Positions 4,478 to 9,303 of a DNA stretch of 64,000 bases are shown piece by piece. Position numbers and translations under genes: made by a program. The stretch is from a virus. The stretch lies in the IMG/VR virus record IMGVR_UViG_3300042553_000685. One strand, given 5' to 3'. Under the pieces are notes generated by a model. That model made no database searches. It was not told the origin of the DNA and saw only the letters and a program-made list of their open reading frames with translations. The stretch's first letter is position 1, and each line of letters opens with the position of its first letter.

Positions 4478-5916
4478 TAATACGAGTAGATGGTAACTGG
4501 GCCTATATACCAGAACTACTGCCAGGCTGTCATAGACATCTCTGTGCAGTGCTAGACGTAGAAGAAGCCCGCTCTATAGCGGGTATTCTTCCTATTGAAC
4601 CCCTAGCTATACCTGCTCATTACCCTCTCTATTATCCAGATGAGCGAGGGGGCTGTCGCTTATTGGCGGGTCTCCTCCCTCTCTATATGGAGTTACTACG
4701 GCGGGCTGGCCATACTGCTACTCTAGAATTGCCCCCCCGACCAACTCTACTCGATCCTGTTATAGACGCTAGACTACGCCTCGACCAACGAGAGGCAATA
4801 GCTAGCGTATTACGAGGCTACCGGGGCTACGTGCGGGCTGCTACTGGTTATGGAAAGAGCGCTGTTATTGCCACGCTGATGAAATACTTCGAGGCCCACC
4901 GACTCATAGTAGTACCTACCGTACGTCTACTCTACCAGATGGCAGAGGATGTGCAGGAGTGGGCGGGCCTCTCTCCTGGACTAGTAGGAGATGGTAATGA
5001 TGATATTGGAGCTATGACTATCGCTACCGTAGATACTCTCTATGAGCGTATTAAGCGGGGCGATAGGCGCTATATAGAGTGGCTCTCTGGTATTGAGGTC
5101 GCTGTGTTCGATGAGGCGCATACCTATATGAATGCAAGTGGTATCACTACTGCTCTATCATTAGTCAACGCGTGTTATAAGATTGGCATGACTGCTACAC
5201 CTACTCGCCCTAAGATGATGGAGGCTATATTCGGCCCCCTTCTTGCAGAGTATCAAGAGACTACTCTCATCGAGAGCGGCGTCATTATGCAACCTAAGTT
5301 CGAGTTCTATCCAGCTCCTCCCGGTGCAGTAACGCACGGCTCATTCAATAAGCCCTTTACACCATGGCTCTATAATCAGCTATACGATAGCGTCATAGTT
5401 AATAATAGAGCCCGCAATGCCCTTATAGCAAGGCACGCATGCCGACTGATAAATGAAGGCTATGGGCCTGTGCTCATCCTAGTGCGTAAGGTAGGTACTA
5501 CTAGTAAGAAGAAGAATCCTGCCAGTCAGGCTCTTAACGTACTGACTGAGCTAGAGGCGCTGGGCACATCTCTACCCATTATTCATGGTAAGAGTACTAA
5601 CATAACCGACGTACTAGACCAGCTGTCAGCGGGCTCTATATCTGGCGCTATAGCCAGTGAGGGTATCTTGAGCCTAGGTGTAAGCATACGCTCTATTGGT
5701 AGTATTATAATGGCCGCCGGTGGTAAGGGAGGAGTAGACGGTGTATCTATGATTCAAAAGGTGGGCCGGGCCTTACGCGTTAAAGAGGGTAAGCGTAACC
5801 CACCTATAATTGACTTCGTGGATCCACAGGGCTGGTTCCACTCTCAGAGTGAGGCGCGTATTAGAATAGCCACTGATACATACGGCGGTGATCACGTCAC
5901 TGTATTCACTACTTGA
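4474..5916 (+). CDS. SF2 DEAH-box DNA helicase (UvsW / Res-subunit-like)
   Basis: Motif I ATGYGKS, motif II FDEAH, motif III TATP, motif VI QKVGRALR. It overlaps the upstream stop (ATGA). Confidence 0.85.
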   Translation: MIIRVDGNWAYIPELLPGCHRHLCAVLDVEEARSIAGILPIEPLAIPAHYPLYYPDERGGCRLLAGLLPLYMELLRRAGHTATLELPPRPTLLDPVIDARLRLDQREAIASVLRGYRGYVRAATGYGKSAVIATLMKYFEAHRLIVVPTVRLLYQMAEDVQEWAGLSPGLVGDGNDDIGAMTIATVDTLYERIKRGDRRYIEWLSGIEVAVFDEAHTYMNASGITTALSLVNACYKIGMTATPTRPKMMEAIFGPLLAEYQETTLIESGVIMQPKFEFYPAPPGAVTHGSFNKPFTPWLYNQLYDSVIVNNRARNALIARHACRLINEGYGPVLILVRKVGTTSKKKNPASQALNVLTELEALGTSLPIIHGKSTNITDVLDQLSAGSISGAIASEGILSLGVSIRSIGSIIMAAGGKGGVDGVSMIQKVGRALRVKEGKRNPPIIDFVDPQGWFHSQSEARIRIATDTYGGDHVTVFTT

Positions 5917-5929
5917 CACTAGCGCTGTC

Positions 5930-6193
5930 CTAGCATGCCCATGCCTTGCGGGCCTTGCATAAGCGCTTGTTAGGTGTCTTGCGACAGTCTATATCGTGCA
6001 TATCCGCCTGGCCTGCGCTACGCGCACAGAAGCTCTTACGGCGGGCCGCATCTACCTTATTCTTGGGATTAGGAGCAGGGGGCTTCAGGTTAGAGCCAGT
6101 AGCGCGATTGTAATCAGCGCGGCCCTTAGCTGTTAGCCCTCCGTCTGGATCCTTGTGCTCTTTCTTAAAAGTGAAGCTCTTCTTCTTAGCCAT
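5930..6193 (-). CDS. Small basic Cys-containing protein (87 aa)
   Basis: The only credible - strand ORF in the left arm. Lys/Arg-rich (MAKKKSFTFKKEHKDPDGGLTAKGRADYNRATGSNLKPP...) with 4 Cys in the C-terminal third. Confidence 0.5.
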   Translation of the reverse strand: MAKKKSFTFKKEHKDPDGGLTAKGRADYNRATGSNLKPPAPNPKNKVDAARRKSFCARSAGQADMHDIDCRKTPNKRLCKARKAWAC

Positions 6194-6327: not shown

Positions 6328-6410
6328 GGGTTAGTGGCCGAGTAGTCGAAGGCGACAGACTGTAAATCTGTAGATTTAATTCCACGCTGGTGCAAATCCA
6401 GCTTAACCCA
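6328..6410 (+). tRNA. tRNA-Tyr (GTA), long-variable-arm type
   Basis: Hand fold gives acceptor GGGTTAG/TTAACCC (one G:T pair), D arm GCC-GAGTAGTCGAA-GGC, and anticodon arm ACAGA-CTGTAAA-TCTGT. It also gives a 14-nt variable region and T arm GCTGG-TGCAAAT-CCAGC. No CCA is encoded. The T-loop has G where U55 is expected. Confidence 0.65.
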
Positions 6411-6438
6411 CTAAAATAAATAAGGATTGAAATAACCA

Positions 6439-6744
6439 ATGAAGACCATCTGGAAGTACCCTATCTCTTCTGTGCCTTGCCAAAAGATTGAAATGCCGTT
6501 AAATGCAGAGATATTATGTGTTCAGTTACAGGATCATATTCCTACACTTTGGGCATTAGTAGAAACAGAAAATCCCAAAAAACCTTTTAATATTTTGACT
6601 TACTACACTGGTGCTTACTGGATAAATGAAAAAGGAAAATACATTGGAACCTATCAATTAGCTGGATTGGTACATCATGTATTTGTTGATGATATTTACA
6701 AAGAGGAATATCAATTTTATTTTGAAACAGAAAAAATCAATTGA
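6439..6744 (+). CDS. Hypothetical protein (101 aa)
   Basis: AT-rich ORF in the tRNA islet, followed by a strong hairpin. No motif recognised. Confidence 0.5.
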   Translation: MKTIWKYPISSVPCQKIEMPLNAEILCVQLQDHIPTLWALVETENPKKPFNILTYYTGAYWINEKGKYIGTYQLAGLVHHVFVDDIYKEEYQFYFETEKIN

Positions 6745-6795
6745 ACAGATACTAGCCAAAATAAAACCTCTCAACAAAATAAAGGCAAAACTAAT

Positions 6796-6846
6796 TATGA
6801 CCATGTCTTTCCCCGATGTAAATCATTGGCGAAAGACATGGTCATA
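6796..6846. terminator. 16-bp perfect hairpin, candidate bidirectional terminator
   Basis: TATGACCATGTCTTTC (6796-6811) pairs with GAAAGACATGGTCATA (6831-6846) around a 19-nt loop. It lies between the converging ORF 6439-6744 (+) and the tRNA-like RNA (-). Confidence 0.5.
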
Positions 6847-6906
6847 GGAATTGACACAATAAACCTTTTCAGGGTATCGAGAAGGAATGTATTTTCCGAC
6901 CACAGG

Positions 6907-7104
6907 TACTAGGGACGGGAATTGAACCCGCAAAACTTAATTAAATCTACTCCTGACGAAACGCCCTTCCCTCACTCAATCTTTGCCAAGTTCGGTGGAT
7001 TCGCAAATTTCAGTTTTGAAACAAAAAACAAAGGTATTTTTTGCATTAAGTCCCTTTTCGGTTGAAGGCTCCGTTTCAGCCTTTAGCTACCAAGCTACCC
7101 TAGC
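6907..7104 (-). ncRNA. 198-nt tRNA-like RNA (interrupted tRNA, possibly Phe-GAA, or tRNA-like ncRNA)
   Basis: On the - strand, 5-prime GCTAGGG-TAGCTTGGTAGCT pairs with the 3-prime end GCGGG-TTCAATT-CCCGT-CCCTAGT-A. That gives a 7-bp acceptor with one G:T pair and a canonical T arm. About 120 nt of extra sequence lies between the halves. AAAGG-CTGAAAC would be a Phe-type anticodon arm, with its complement CCTTT 38 nt further on. Confidence 0.5.
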
Positions 7105-7110
7105 ACTTCA

Positions 7111-7139
7111 ATTATATCAGAGACTTCTAAAATTGTCAA
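7111..7139 (-). promoter_or_regulatory. Consensus sigma70 promoter for the tRNA-like RNA
   Basis: On the - strand: TTGACA (7139-7134), a 17-nt spacer, TATAAT (7116-7111), then 6 nt to the first acceptor base at 7104. Confidence 0.65.
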
Positions 7140-7156
7140 TCCTTGCATGACTACTT

Positions 7157-7744
7157 ATGTTCTTTATTATTATTCATGGTCTAAGTGGCTCAGGTAAGAC
7201 TGAAGCCTCTAAATGTTTATCTAAGTTACTGGGGGTAGAGGAGATTCATCCTATAGCTCCATGGAAGCGCTTCACAGAGAAATACTATGGATTGCCAGAG
7301 GGGGCCCTCGATACAACAGAATACAAGGAGTATACACCCAATGGTATGAATATAACCATGAATCAGTTCATGGTTAATCTCTATCACTTCATGAGAGAGA
7401 ATGACCCCTACTTTTCTAGTCGTATGATGCGGACTGAGATACGGCGCCATATCAGCGAGGGTATACCTACTCTTCTATTATCCCTACGCAACCTGGAGGA
7501 GGTAGAGGTAATAGAGAGTATACTATCTACATTGATTAATAGATGTTGTATAGTAATCAATATAAGCCGCTCGTCTGAGCAGGTACTGAGTAGTGATGTT
7601 AACTATCAGGCGATTAAGGACCGTCTGGCACGCCTTAATGGGGCGGGCGTTCATTATATAGACATAGTTAATGATTACCGCAGAGTATCAGACTTGAAGA
7701 AGGCACTAGAGAGATTGCTTAAGATTTATGTCAATTCTAGATGA
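7157..7744 (+). CDS. P-loop nucleotide/nucleoside-monophosphate kinase-like protein
   Basis: N-terminal Walker A IIIHGLSGSGKTE in a 195-aa protein. The size and layout fit dNMP-kinase-type enzymes. Confidence 0.55.
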   Translation: MFFIIIHGLSGSGKTEASKCLSKLLGVEEIHPIAPWKRFTEKYYGLPEGALDTTEYKEYTPNGMNITMNQFMVNLYHFMRENDPYFSSRMMRTEIRRHISEGIPTLLLSLRNLEEVEVIESILSTLINRCCIVINISRSSEQVLSSDVNYQAIKDRLARLNGAGVHYIDIVNDYRRVSDLKKALERLLKIYVNSR

Positions 7745-8183
7745 CAGACCGTGGTACTACGTTATATATAAGGGCCCCGATTCTTATATAGGTGTGACTG
7801 ATTATCTCGCGGCCGTGGCGCATGATAGGCAGTCTAGTCTAAGTTTTATGACACAGCAGAGTAGATTACTCAATTACCTGAAGAAGGGGCGCGCAGATTA
7901 TAAAACTAGTATCCGCGTAGCCCGCGCCATTAGGCCCGCCAGTGTAATAGGTTATGGTAACTATCTAGTAAGACAGAAGGGACACCTATCAGTTATTGAG
8001 CGGTGTGATGTTAGTACTCCTCATAGTCATAAGCATTTGAAATCCGCGCGGGCCGAGTTGATTATCTATCTCGAATGCGAGATGGACCGATGGAGTAAAA
8101 CAATTAGGACTATACGGAGATTAGATGCAGATAACGTTCAACGGCCCCTATCAGATGCTGCTGGGTCCGGCAGGGAGTGGTAA
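7728..8183 (+). CDS. Hypothetical protein (151 aa)
   Basis: ORF overlaps both neighbours. The N-terminal YYVIYKGPDSYIGVT is only weakly GIY-YIG-like and the spacing is atypical. Confidence 0.45.
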   Translation: MSILDDRPWYYVIYKGPDSYIGVTDYLAAVAHDRQSSLSFMTQQSRLLNYLKKGRADYKTSIRVARAIRPASVIGYGNYLVRQKGHLSVIERCDVSTPHSHKHLKSARAELIIYLECEMDRWSKTIRTIRRLDADNVQRPLSDAAGSGREW

Positions 8184-9303
8184 AACAACATACATACAGA
8201 GTTTGAGTAAGGCCCTCATCACTAGTAGTACTGGCGTGAGCGCTATTAATGCAGGCGGTACTACTATTCACGCGGCCCTCCAGTTCTTTGATACTACTAG
8301 TCTATTACGCTCCGCTTCCAGTGGAGCGCTGGCCACTAAGCTACGGGCTATATCTAATCTATTTGATACTCTAGTCATAGATGAGATCAGTATGTTACAT
8401 GGCCCGCAACTAACTATTATCCATCACGTAATGGAAAAGAGTAACATAAATATGAATCTCCTACTCGTGGGGGACTTCTGTCAATTACCACTAGTACCAG
8501 ATAAAAAGGTCACTAGCACGCCAGTCTATCAAACAGACTGCCTGCAGAGCTTCGATATACAGTACTTACGAGAGGTCAGGCGTCAGAGTGACCCCGGCTT
8601 CATACAGGCGCTGACTAGCGTAAGAGAAGGGCGGCCTCACGAAGCAGTAGATTGGTTCATAGATAATGTAGAGTTTGTCAATCAGATCGATGATAACTAC
8701 GCGGGCACTACTATCCTGACTACTAATGATAGTGTAGATAGATATAACGCCGTGCACCTAGCACAACTAGAAGGGCCTAGTCGCCTCTACACTAAGAACT
8801 ACGTTATACCGAAGGGGGGGAGGGCCGCTCCTGAGTGGAGCCAAATACCCGAATCAGTAGAGCTGAGGAAGGGCGCGCGCGTCATTCTACTTCGTAACAG
8901 ACTACCTGCGTATGCTAATGGCGATATCGCTATAGTCAAGGAGCTCATGACTAATACTATACTGGTGACAGTAGAACGTACCGGTCAGGAGACTATCATT
9001 GAATACGTGACACGAGATAATAAAGAGCTCGGCACTAACAAGCTATTGGGTCGCTGCCACTACTTACCCGTTAGACTGGGCTATGCCCTCACTGTTCATC
9101 GTAGTCAGGGGCTCACGCTTAATAACGTACAGGCTCGTCTCAGTAATTTACGTTGGCTCAGCGGGGGCCTCTATACTATTCTTAGTCGTGTACGTCATTA
9201 TAGCGGCCTCCGCCTGATAGGTACACGATCCGCCTTCTGTGATAGTTGCTATATAGAGCCTTCTATCCTTAAATTCTATAATCAGTTAGGTACTAAATCA
9301 TAA
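8125..9303 (+). CDS. SF1 helicase (Pif1 / RecD / Dda-like)
   Basis: Walker A GPAGSGKTT, Walker B VIDEISM, LLLVGDFCQLP, and TVHRSQGLT. Confidence 0.85.
   Translation: MQITFNGPYQMLLGPAGSGKTTYIQSLSKALITSSTGVSAINAGGTTIHAALQFFDTTSLLRSASSGALATKLRAISNLFDTLVIDEISMLHGPQLTIIHHVMEKSNINMNLLLVGDFCQLPLVPDKKVTSTPVYQTDCLQSFDIQYLREVRRQSDPGFIQALTSVREGRPHEAVDWFIDNVEFVNQIDDNYAGTTILTTNDSVDRYNAVHLAQLEGPSRLYTKNYVIPKGGRAAPEWSQIPESVELRKGARVILLRNRLPAYANGDIAIVKELMTNTILVTVERTGQETIIEYVTRDNKELGTNKLLGRCHYLPVRLGYALTVHRSQGLTLNNVQARLSNLRWLSGGLYTILSRVRHYSGLRLIGTRSAFCDSCYIEPSILKFYNQLGTKS

Follow-up and report, generated by a model that had tools for sequence, protein, structure and literature searches.

Phage tRNA-like stable RNAs form a small and poorly understood group, exemplified by RNA C and RNA D of phage T4, which undergo processing like that of transfer RNA (tRNA) and carry a CCA end. 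Both are small phage-encoded RNAs of unknown function whose genes lie beside tRNA genes (PMC3014915). Here we describe an element that would add a case to this group. It lies at 6907–7139 on the minus strand of a 64,000-nucleotide (nt) stretch of viral DNA (IMG/VR record IMGVR_UViG_3300042553_000685; the window, hereafter) and consists of a promoter followed by a gene for an RNA of about 198 nt with tRNA-like ends. Like the T4 RNAs, it is phage-encoded, small and next to a tRNA gene. However, it bears no sequence relationship to them, belongs to a phage of another host phylum and has its own consensus promoter, whereas RNA C and RNA D are cut from the transcript of a tRNA cluster.

Several other described RNAs offer comparisons. 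With canonical and class II tRNAs, such as the tRNA-Tyr encoded nearby (6328–6411), the element has in common an acceptor stem, A73, a T arm, GG in the D region and a 12-nt identity; it differs from them by about 122 extra nt, by the absence of a 7-nt anticodon loop with U33, and by giving neither an Rfam tRNA match at E ≤ 10 nor a default ARAGORN call. Engineered tRNA-scaffold RNAs also set tRNA acceptor, T and D elements around a foreign domain, and the scaffold confers processing and stability on an RNA inserted in place of the anticodon arm. They are artificial, however, and the analogy concerns the working mode, not family membership; we know of no described natural phage counterpart. YrlA, a bacterial Y-RNA-like non-coding RNA, joins a tRNA-mimicking module to another functional module, but in the reverse topology, as its ends form the Ro-binding stem and its tRNA-like part is internal. 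Transfer-messenger RNAs (tmRNA, SsrA, RF00023) are typically some 260–400 nt long. Their ends, like those of the present RNA, form an acceptor stem and a canonical T arm, they have no anticodon, and both RNAs contain a large internal domain closed by a helix, with a helix upstream of an unstructured segment that holds an A at −4 and a short frame, in the present RNA a candidate one, that begins with Ala-Asn. In contrast to tmRNA, the present RNA of about 198 nt has neither G3:U70 nor pseudoknots 1–4 (PK1–4), carries D and anticodon-position hairpins, ends its candidate tag in a way that is not degron-like, and gives no signal with ARAGORN or the Rfam covariance model past its T arm. The tmRNA database includes phage-encoded forms and forms without a coding sequence (PMC11915505).

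The relatives of the window are phages of the Ma-LMM01 type, which are foremost among the cultured lytic phages of Microcystis aeruginosa, a toxic bloom-former. We find that the element is real, was not previously annotated, is specific to Fukuivirus phages and cannot decode codons, and that its RNA matches no described RNA family. Our favoured explanation, to which we assign a probability of about 40%, is that it encodes a phage-specific, tRNA-derived stable non-coding RNA in which the tRNA half would provide processing and stability and an internal core would act as the effector.

A consensus promoter and tRNA-like ends delimit the gene

Upstream of the RNA lies a SigA-type sigma-70 promoter (7111–7139, minus strand, as are all features of the RNA below), composed of TTGACA at 7139–7134, a 17-nt spacer, the extended −10 dinucleotide TG at 7119–7118 and TATAAT at 7116–7111. 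It matches the consensus at 12 of 12 positions in addition to the TG. No other site in the 64 kb comes within one mismatch of the consensus, but about 0.6 such sites would be expected by chance, so that its weight lies in its placement and in its conservation among relatives, where the −35 hexamer and the TG are invariant and the −10 hexamer reads TATAAT, TAGAAT or TAGGAT. The −10 hexamer is 6 nt from G7104. Judged by this spacing only, transcription would start at G7104, in agreement with an earlier reading of the bare sequence (the original prediction) that had proposed the perfect promoter and a start near this base. G7104 is the first nucleotide of the acceptor 5′ strand GCUAGGG (7098–7104; RNA positions 1–7), and an RNA from there to A6907 measures 198 nt. 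Ma-LMM01 infection is unusual in changing the host transcriptome little, and host SigA-type promoters are used by all its expression classes throughout infection (PMC5780444), a reliance that fits the promoter found here.

The two ends of the RNA have the features of a tRNA. GCUAGGG (7104–7098) forms a 7-bp acceptor stem with CCCUAGU (6914–6908), and this 3′ strand is followed by the discriminator A6907 (together 6907–6914; RNA 191–197 and 198). Across 32 variants, 98% of alignment cells in the stem are paired, and covariation accompanies the conserved pairing: pair 6:67 is found as G-C, A-U and G·U, and pair 1:72 as G·U or A-U (A1-U72 in five variants), while pair 5:68 is G-C or G·U. CCA is not encoded after A6907; the next bases are CC, CU, UU or UC among variants. 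The T arm GCGGG-UUCAAUU-CCCGU (6931–6915; RNA 174–190), the only canonical one in the window, has the 5-bp stem, G53-C61 and UUCRANY loop expected of a tRNA. At the 5′ end, UAGCUUGGUAGCUA (7097–7084; RNA 8–21) forms a shortened D-like hairpin, UAGCU-UGGU-AGCUA, with GG in its loop, and the change C11>U seen in variants retains pairing as U·G. All three elements had been recognized in the original prediction, as had an excess of about 120 nt; we measure about 122 nt over a 76-nt tRNA, with 152 nt between the D-like hairpin and the T arm.

A further link to tRNA is the 12-mer GUAGAUUUAAUU (6939–6950), which is also found in the variable arm of tRNA-Tyr (6370–6381, plus strand) and lies just 5′ of the T arm in both. 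Sharing of 12 nt arose in 2 of 2,000 shuffles. Together with the T arm and the similarity in the D region, the 12-mer points to descent from a tRNA gene, and the identity may reflect common ancestry or gene conversion. At the DNA level, the two copies form a 12-bp inverted repeat whose halves are separated by about 560 bp in the window and by about 100 bp in Ma-LMM01.

The stretch shared with relatives starts at the −35 hexamer and stops just past the discriminator, after which the population has two unrelated 3′ flanks. Promoter and RNA together thus make up the conserved unit, and its boundary coincides with the tRNA-like 3′ end. A possible end of the primary transcript is a weak stem followed by UUUAUU (6864–6885), found 22–43 nt beyond the 3′ end of the RNA and retained by most relatives; terminator detection reports it on the plus strand only, and on the minus strand it contains one mismatch. 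The hairpin at 6796–6846, earlier suggested as the terminator, does exist as an inverted repeat with 23-nt arms (91%), but it sits in a lineage-specific insertion that is missing from Ma-LMM01, MaMV-DC and MaMV-DH01 and is therefore not a conserved terminator of the element.

The element is shared by Fukuivirus phages

Over the 9 kb around the element, the window is about 93–94% identical to Ma-LMM01, MaMV-DC, MaMV-DH01 and four other MaMV isolates, all Microcystis phages of the genus Fukuivirus. The element is flanked by a gene for a P-loop protein (7157–7744, a homologue of gp162) and by the tRNA-Tyr gene, in a helicase-gene module. It is present in 9/9 GenBank relatives and annotated as a gene in none of them, having been missed in all nine deposited genomes. 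Its promoter ranks among the best of the region, and the purifying selection on it is strong. Its only overlap with any annotation is that the first 7 nt of the RNA fall within the Ma-LMM01 gp162 annotation.

In pattern scans, 48 contigs from IMG/VR, 13 from JGI metagenomes and three from bacterial metagenome-assembled genomes (MAGs) proved to carry the element, and the metagenomic copies comprise 33 distinct variants, every one at least 94% identical. The three MAG contigs (L084 and L086 from a Crocinitomicaceae MAG, L085 from an Acidimicrobium MAG) also carry the phage neighbourhood and are probably Microcystis-phage contigs misbinned into unrelated genomes. Distant homologues were not found: scans of viral, metagenome and genome collections, as well as blastn against phages, plasmids and E. 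coli, returned relatives of at least 94% identity or chance matches. Neither nhmmer nor a T-arm scan revealed paralogues in the window, and no description of this RNA turned up among the papers searched.

The RNA lacks a decoding loop and matches no known family

Default ARAGORN and Rfam at gathering thresholds do not call the RNA and report only tRNA-Tyr. A permissive Rfam scan of 6600–7400 (E ≤ 10) gave no RF00005 tRNA, no Intron_gpI and no other ribozyme. The single permissive match on the RNA itself was that of its T arm to the tmRNA model, covering 15 nt at 13 bits (gathering score 47), and no Rfam Y-RNA family matched the RNA at threshold. Thus, covariance models place it in no known family. 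Only the intron mode of ARAGORN produced a call, a non-canonical 'tRNA-Pro(GGG)' that combines an intron of 105 nt with a D stem of 3 bp and a long variable arm. Its anticodon loop, CGGGGCG, is without U33 and purine 37 and is thus not plausible for decoding.

The position of the anticodon arm is occupied by hairpin 1, AAGGCU-GAAACGG-AGCCUU (7065–7083; RNA 22–40). Its loop does not show the U33, anticodon and purine 37 of an anticodon arm, as GAAACGG has A at 33. Among variants the loop has 7, 8 or 9 nt, its first and last positions vary and only AAACG is invariant; it is not a decoding loop. The proposal that AAAGG-CTGAAAC is a Phe (GAA) anticodon arm thus has to be abandoned, since the GAAAC loop belongs to the AAGGCU/AGCCUU hairpin and varies in length. 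The same applies to CCTTT as the partner of the anticodon stem, because CCUU is the hypervariable apical loop of a second hairpin formed by GCAAAAAAUA and UGUUUUUUGU.

Internal structure and covariation

Within the loop of hairpin 1, GAAACG (7072–7077; RNA 28–33) could make six perfect pairs with CGUUUC (6958–6963; RNA 142–147), and we propose that the two form a loop-to-strand pseudoknot. Alternatively, the 3′ strand could take part in a local 4-bp hairpin, GGCG/CGUC. In contig L038, G28>A is accompanied by C147>U; in two other variants, A28 makes an A×C mismatch. The 'anticodon stem' of the ARAGORN call consists of these same pairs.

The internal domain is closed by a helix between (G)ACUUAAU (7045–7052; RNA 53–60) and AUUAAGU(U) (6934–6941; RNA 164–171), the latter strand containing the end of GUAGAUUUAAUU. 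As ACUUAAU/AUUAAGU is invariant, this helix has no covariation support. Hairpin 2, the A6/U6 hairpin GCAAAAAAUA-CCUU-UGUUUUUUGU (7021–7044; RNA 61–84), is markedly more stable than shuffles (z = −4.8). Its pair 69:76 is U·G, U-A or C-G with stem pairing kept, and a paired +A/+U indel in it separates 200-nt from 198-nt variants. Nowhere is the RNA more variable than in the loop of this hairpin, which reads CCUU, AAGU, ACUU, AAGG or UCUU. Considering the whole structure model, 99.6% of cells are paired, compared with 40–57% in slid controls, and three pairs show compensatory changes on both sides, a result reached by 9 of 500 shuffles. The class-II-like fold suggested by ARAGORN, with a D region of GCU/GGC around an 11-nt loop, is 5–7 kcal/mol less stable than the main fold; the available variation does not decide between the two.

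As a separate observation, GCAAAAAAUA (7036–7045; RNA 61–70) is identical to the 10 nt before the −1 triplet of E. coli tmRNA, whose context is GCAAAAAAUA-GUC-GCA according to primers in PMC2481249. We treat this match as chance, because the resume codon placed by that analogy is not frame-conserved among variants.

Purifying selection is strongest on the internal core

To gauge selection, nucleotide diversity (π) was calculated from 16 distinct haplotypes that also cover the neighbouring gp162 homologue. In that gene, π is 0.075 at 4-fold sites and 0.019 at codon positions 1 and 2. For the whole RNA it is 0.023, 3-fold below the neighbouring 4-fold sites. RNA 1–21 (acceptor 5′ strand and D hairpin) and RNA 22–40 (hairpin 1) reach 0.035–0.04, the A6/U6 hairpin (RNA 61–84) is near neutral at 0.066, and RNA 85–198 has only 0.007–0.008, 10-fold below the 4-fold sites. 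The RNA gene is therefore under purifying selection, which acts most strongly on the internal core. This core (6941–7020; RNA 85–164) is poorly structured and includes a candidate tag frame, the 3′ strand of the putative pseudoknot and several GGA/GGAG motifs. As it folds worse than dinucleotide shuffles (z = +0.91), it appears to be conserved as sequence and not as helices.

A tRNA-like scaffold with an effector core as the favoured explanation

Overall, these data are compatible with a model in which a tRNA fold serves as the carrier of another function. Host RNA polymerase with SigA would transcribe the gene from the extended −10 promoter, starting at or within 1–2 nt of the mature 5′ end, and the ends of the transcript would fold into the acceptor/T-arm half of a tRNA with a shortened D hairpin. 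Host tRNA end-maturation enzymes could read this module, with 3′ trimming, CCA addition and, if there is a short leader, RNase P cleavage, and the module might also keep exonucleases off, much as a tRNA scaffold protects an engineered RNA. The anticodon and variable region has given way to about 150 nt, which would provide a pseudoknotting hairpin, the closing helix, the A6/U6 hairpin with a free loop, and the core. We infer that this purine-rich core of about 80 nt is the effector, which would bind a host RNA or protein in a sequence-specific manner during infection.

One reason to place the function in the core and not in the tRNA-like half comes from a lineage of six contigs (L041, L042, L045, L046, L050 and L053), in which the acceptor 3′ strand has changed from CUCUAGUAC to CUGGGGAC. 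Only 4/7 acceptor pairs are left in this lineage, and the core is intact, which fits the core as the functional part. Most of these contigs also carry C87>U, and all have the T loop UUCGAUU. The own promoter, the tRNA ends, the lack of a usable anticodon, the purifying selection and the absence of a known family agree with the last option of the original prediction, a tRNA-like regulatory or decoy RNA.

Several points weigh against the scaffold explanation. The promoter match, the tRNA-like ends, the conservation, the covariation and the lack of an anticodon and of known family signatures are observed here, whereas transcription, maturation of the ends, RNA stability and an effector role for the core are deduced. 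'Scaffold plus effector' is, moreover, a broad class that does not pin down a mechanism, and the 64-kb window contains no complementary target of at least 13 nt for the RNA. Because all homologues are at least 94% identical, the covariation comes from few events and most helices are invariant. The cassette can be dispensed with in some settings at least, as two related contigs are without it (see below). Finally, the synonymous-only pattern in the candidate tag frame, described below, would have to be coincidence.

If the core proves to serve as a template or to bind a host factor of defence or translation, the RNA would represent a new phage use of the tRNA fold. The question is experimentally approachable through natural variants: some are without the cassette, in some the acceptor stem is broken, and others differ in their hairpin loops.

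A possible decoy for tRNA-binding factors

The two main rivals of the scaffold explanation are a tRNA-mimic decoy, which we consider possible but doubtful, and a minimal tmRNA analogue, which we consider improbable. For a decoy, the tRNA-like half itself would be the effector: it would titrate or block some tRNA-binding or tRNA-cleaving host factor, for example an anticodon nuclease, a toxin directed at tRNA or an enzyme that modifies tRNA, and the insert would have done away with the cleavable or decodable anticodon loop. Points in its favour are an intact acceptor, T arm and GG-containing D loop, the lack of an anticodon loop and a strong promoter. The gene also adjoins a phage tRNA-Tyr whose D and T loops are unusual. 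Defences that target tRNAs are countered by some phage tRNAs. In addition, Microcystis is unusually rich in defence genes, as noted with the Ma-LMM01 transcriptome (PMC5780444). The distribution of constraint argues in the opposite direction: the tRNA-like 5′ part is less constrained (π 0.035–0.04) than the core of the insert (π 0.007–0.008), and the lineage with the broken acceptor stem has retained the core.

A possible minimal tmRNA analogue

Alternatively, the RNA could be aminoacylated and enter stalled ribosomes, and translation would resume on an internal frame that adds (X)ANPPNLAKIE, so that the phage rescues or redirects stalled host ribosomes without the host degradation tag. The candidate frame, GCG AAU CCA CCG AAC UUG GCA AAG AUU GAG UGA (6972–7004; RNA 101–133), encodes ANPPNLAKIE followed by a stop. 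In tmRNAs, the tag frame usually resumes on a GCN codon with no start codon. All four polymorphic sites in it are synonymous or stop-preserving (GCG>GCU, CCG>CCA, UUG>UUA and UGA>UAA), whereas two sites just upstream are non-synonymous in the same frame, and none of the 48 viral contigs has a non-synonymous variant in it. The topology would suit a tmRNA, with tRNA ends, no anticodon and a closing helix, and a hairpin lies 16 nt upstream of the unstructured conserved region, where tmRNA has PK1. The frame begins with Ala-Asn, as in ANDENYALAA of E. coli and in the tmRNA of contig L120, and the A at −4 takes the position of the nearly invariant A86 (PMC2481249). The sequence CAAAAC...AAAU-GCG-AAY is found at the resume site of the real tmRNA on L120, which shows only that it occurs at a genuine resume site. 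As mentioned, Rfam matches the RNA itself only in its T arm, and does so with the tmRNA model. Mycobacteriophage DS6A is known to have a tmRNA-like RNA that lacks a coding part (PMC11915505).

The evidence against this explanation is heavier. The acceptor stem has no G3:U70, the wobble pair that defines tmRNAs and gives them alanine identity; its first pairs are G1·U72, its only wobble pair, C2-G71 and U3-A70, and a shifted register that would give G3·U70 is broken by G>A at −2 in seven variants. ARAGORN -m finds nothing, also with -ps and -ps80, and the Rfam match is confined to 15 nt at 13 bits, compared with a gathering score of 47. The tag would end in KIE, not in a hydrophobic AA-type degron such as LAA or VAA. 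The D hairpin and the hairpin at the anticodon position occupy the expected SmpB site, where a tmRNA has a stemless D loop and no anticodon arm, and tblastn with E. coli SmpB gave no match in any Microcystis phage record. The codon pattern reaches only p ~0.04–0.1, other frames attain 5–6 of 11 synonymous sites, and the same sites are unpaired or change from G·U to A-U in the structure model. As there is no G3:U70, charging would have to be done by a synthetase other than alanyl-tRNA synthetase. It therefore seems improbable to us that a pseudoknot-poor analogue of about 198 nt, charged in this way, retaining a hairpin at the anticodon-arm position and adding the non-degron tag ANPPNLAKIE, takes over ribosome rescue. 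If it did, no known trans-translation RNA would be smaller, and it would be the first to do without alanine identity.

Population variants and the possibility of a relic

The RNA gene is accessory and lies in a recombination hotspot. In two related contigs (L073 and L081; cassette-less records 3300044858_003476 and 3300011268_000873), the gp162 homologue and tRNA-Tyr are present and the whole 245-bp cassette is absent; in both (at 2950–3000 in L073), a clean junction leads straight to the alternative 3′ flank (TTAAATTGTACCACCAGTCACGAG). In five other contigs (L005 at 4750–6060, L007, L015, L032 and L051), a 1.25-kb insertion has left a second copy of the promoter together with the first 39 nt of the RNA gene. 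The copy beside gp162 is a fragment with a damaged −35 hexamer that ends in a terminator hairpin, AAAAAAACAGAGGG-ACAA-CCCUCUGUUUUUU, and a complete RNA copy with an intact promoter comes after it. The insertion encodes four small open reading frames (ORFs) of 56, 76, 132 and 52 amino acids on the opposite strand.

Such losses and rearrangements raise the question whether the gene is a decaying relic, that is, a tRNA gene disrupted by insertion, without function and carried along by the phage. The missing cassettes, the lineage with the broken acceptor stem and the lineage split by the 1.25-kb insertion, with its 39-nt 5′ fragment, all speak for decay. However, π is 3-fold (RNA) to 10-fold (core) below that at neighbouring 4-fold sites, compensatory changes are seen at three pairs, and the consensus promoter is conserved, including the −35 hexamer and the extended −10 TG. 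Even the insertion lineage keeps a complete copy with an intact promoter. We therefore regard a relic as very unlikely.

Intron-containing tRNA and other readings

Least credible among the rivals, with a very low probability in our estimate, is a tRNA that would become functional by the splicing of about 105–122 nt, yielding either tRNA-Phe or the class-II-like form seen by ARAGORN. In its favour, ARAGORN -i does draw a cloverleaf, in which the 'intron' measures 105 nt, the D stem has 3 bp and the variable arm is long; class II tRNA ancestry is also suggested by the 12-mer common to tRNA-Tyr. Yet Rfam finds no group I intron or ribozyme at E ≤ 10, and an insert of 105–122 nt is far below the smallest group I introns known to us, of about 200 nt, as the original prediction had rightly objected. 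The ligated loop CGGGGCG would have neither U33 nor purine 37, and no other splice choice restores U33-NNN-R37. The CUGAAAC loop becomes CUAAAAC, CUUGAAAC and CUGUGAAAC in variants, and its CCUUU partner is hypervariable. A passive intron should also be the least constrained part of the RNA, whereas the insert is its most conserved part. With variable loops, no group I intron and only a non-canonical ARAGORN call, the suggested tRNA with small insertions or an unusual intron was not borne out; a tRNA-Phe with an insertion is rejected because of the variation in the proposed anticodon loop and its 3′ partner, and a group I intron or other ribozyme because of the lack of an Rfam match at E ≤ 10.

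Other candidates were rejected more directly. A small protein starting at the AUG at RNA 60–62 is contradicted by AUA in six variants, by a frame shifted by −2 in Ma-LMM01, MaMV-DC and MaMV-DH01, and by a hypervariable loop that would be coding. Of two antisense ORFs, 6922–7065 and 6983–7150, one has 8/11 non-synonymous polymorphisms and the other gains a stop codon. As to an RNA anti-CRISPR, a solitary repeat unit mimicking the CRISPR repeats of the host, local alignments to the Microcystis repeats DR1–DR4 (PMC4428289) are no better than those of shuffles, and an antisense regulator of a gene in the window is opposed by the absence of complementarity of at least 13 nt in the 64 kb. Complementarities of 12 nt in the window are at chance level, except for GUAGAUUUAAUU, which is common to tRNA-Tyr.

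Neighbouring features

In the phage tRNA-Tyr(GUA) (6328–6411, plus strand), the T loop UGCAAAU is non-canonical, G taking the place of Psi55, and GG is missing from the D loop (GAGUAGUCGAA); the tRNA nevertheless scores 58 bits on the Rfam tRNA model. This tRNA may be adapted to escape a host factor. The segment 6439–6850, between tRNA-Tyr and the RNA gene, has no aligning counterpart at the same place in Ma-LMM01, MaMV-DC or MaMV-DH01; it contains an ORF of 101 amino acids (DUF7352). The inverted repeat at 6796–6846 comes after this ORF and is probably its terminator or a bidirectional one. On the other side of the element, an ORF of 151 amino acids (7728–8183, plus strand) overlaps the start of a PIF1/RecD-like helicase ORF of 392 amino acids (8125–9303, plus strand) by 59 nt in another frame, and the annotated start of this helicase differs between Ma-LMM01 and MaMV-DC.

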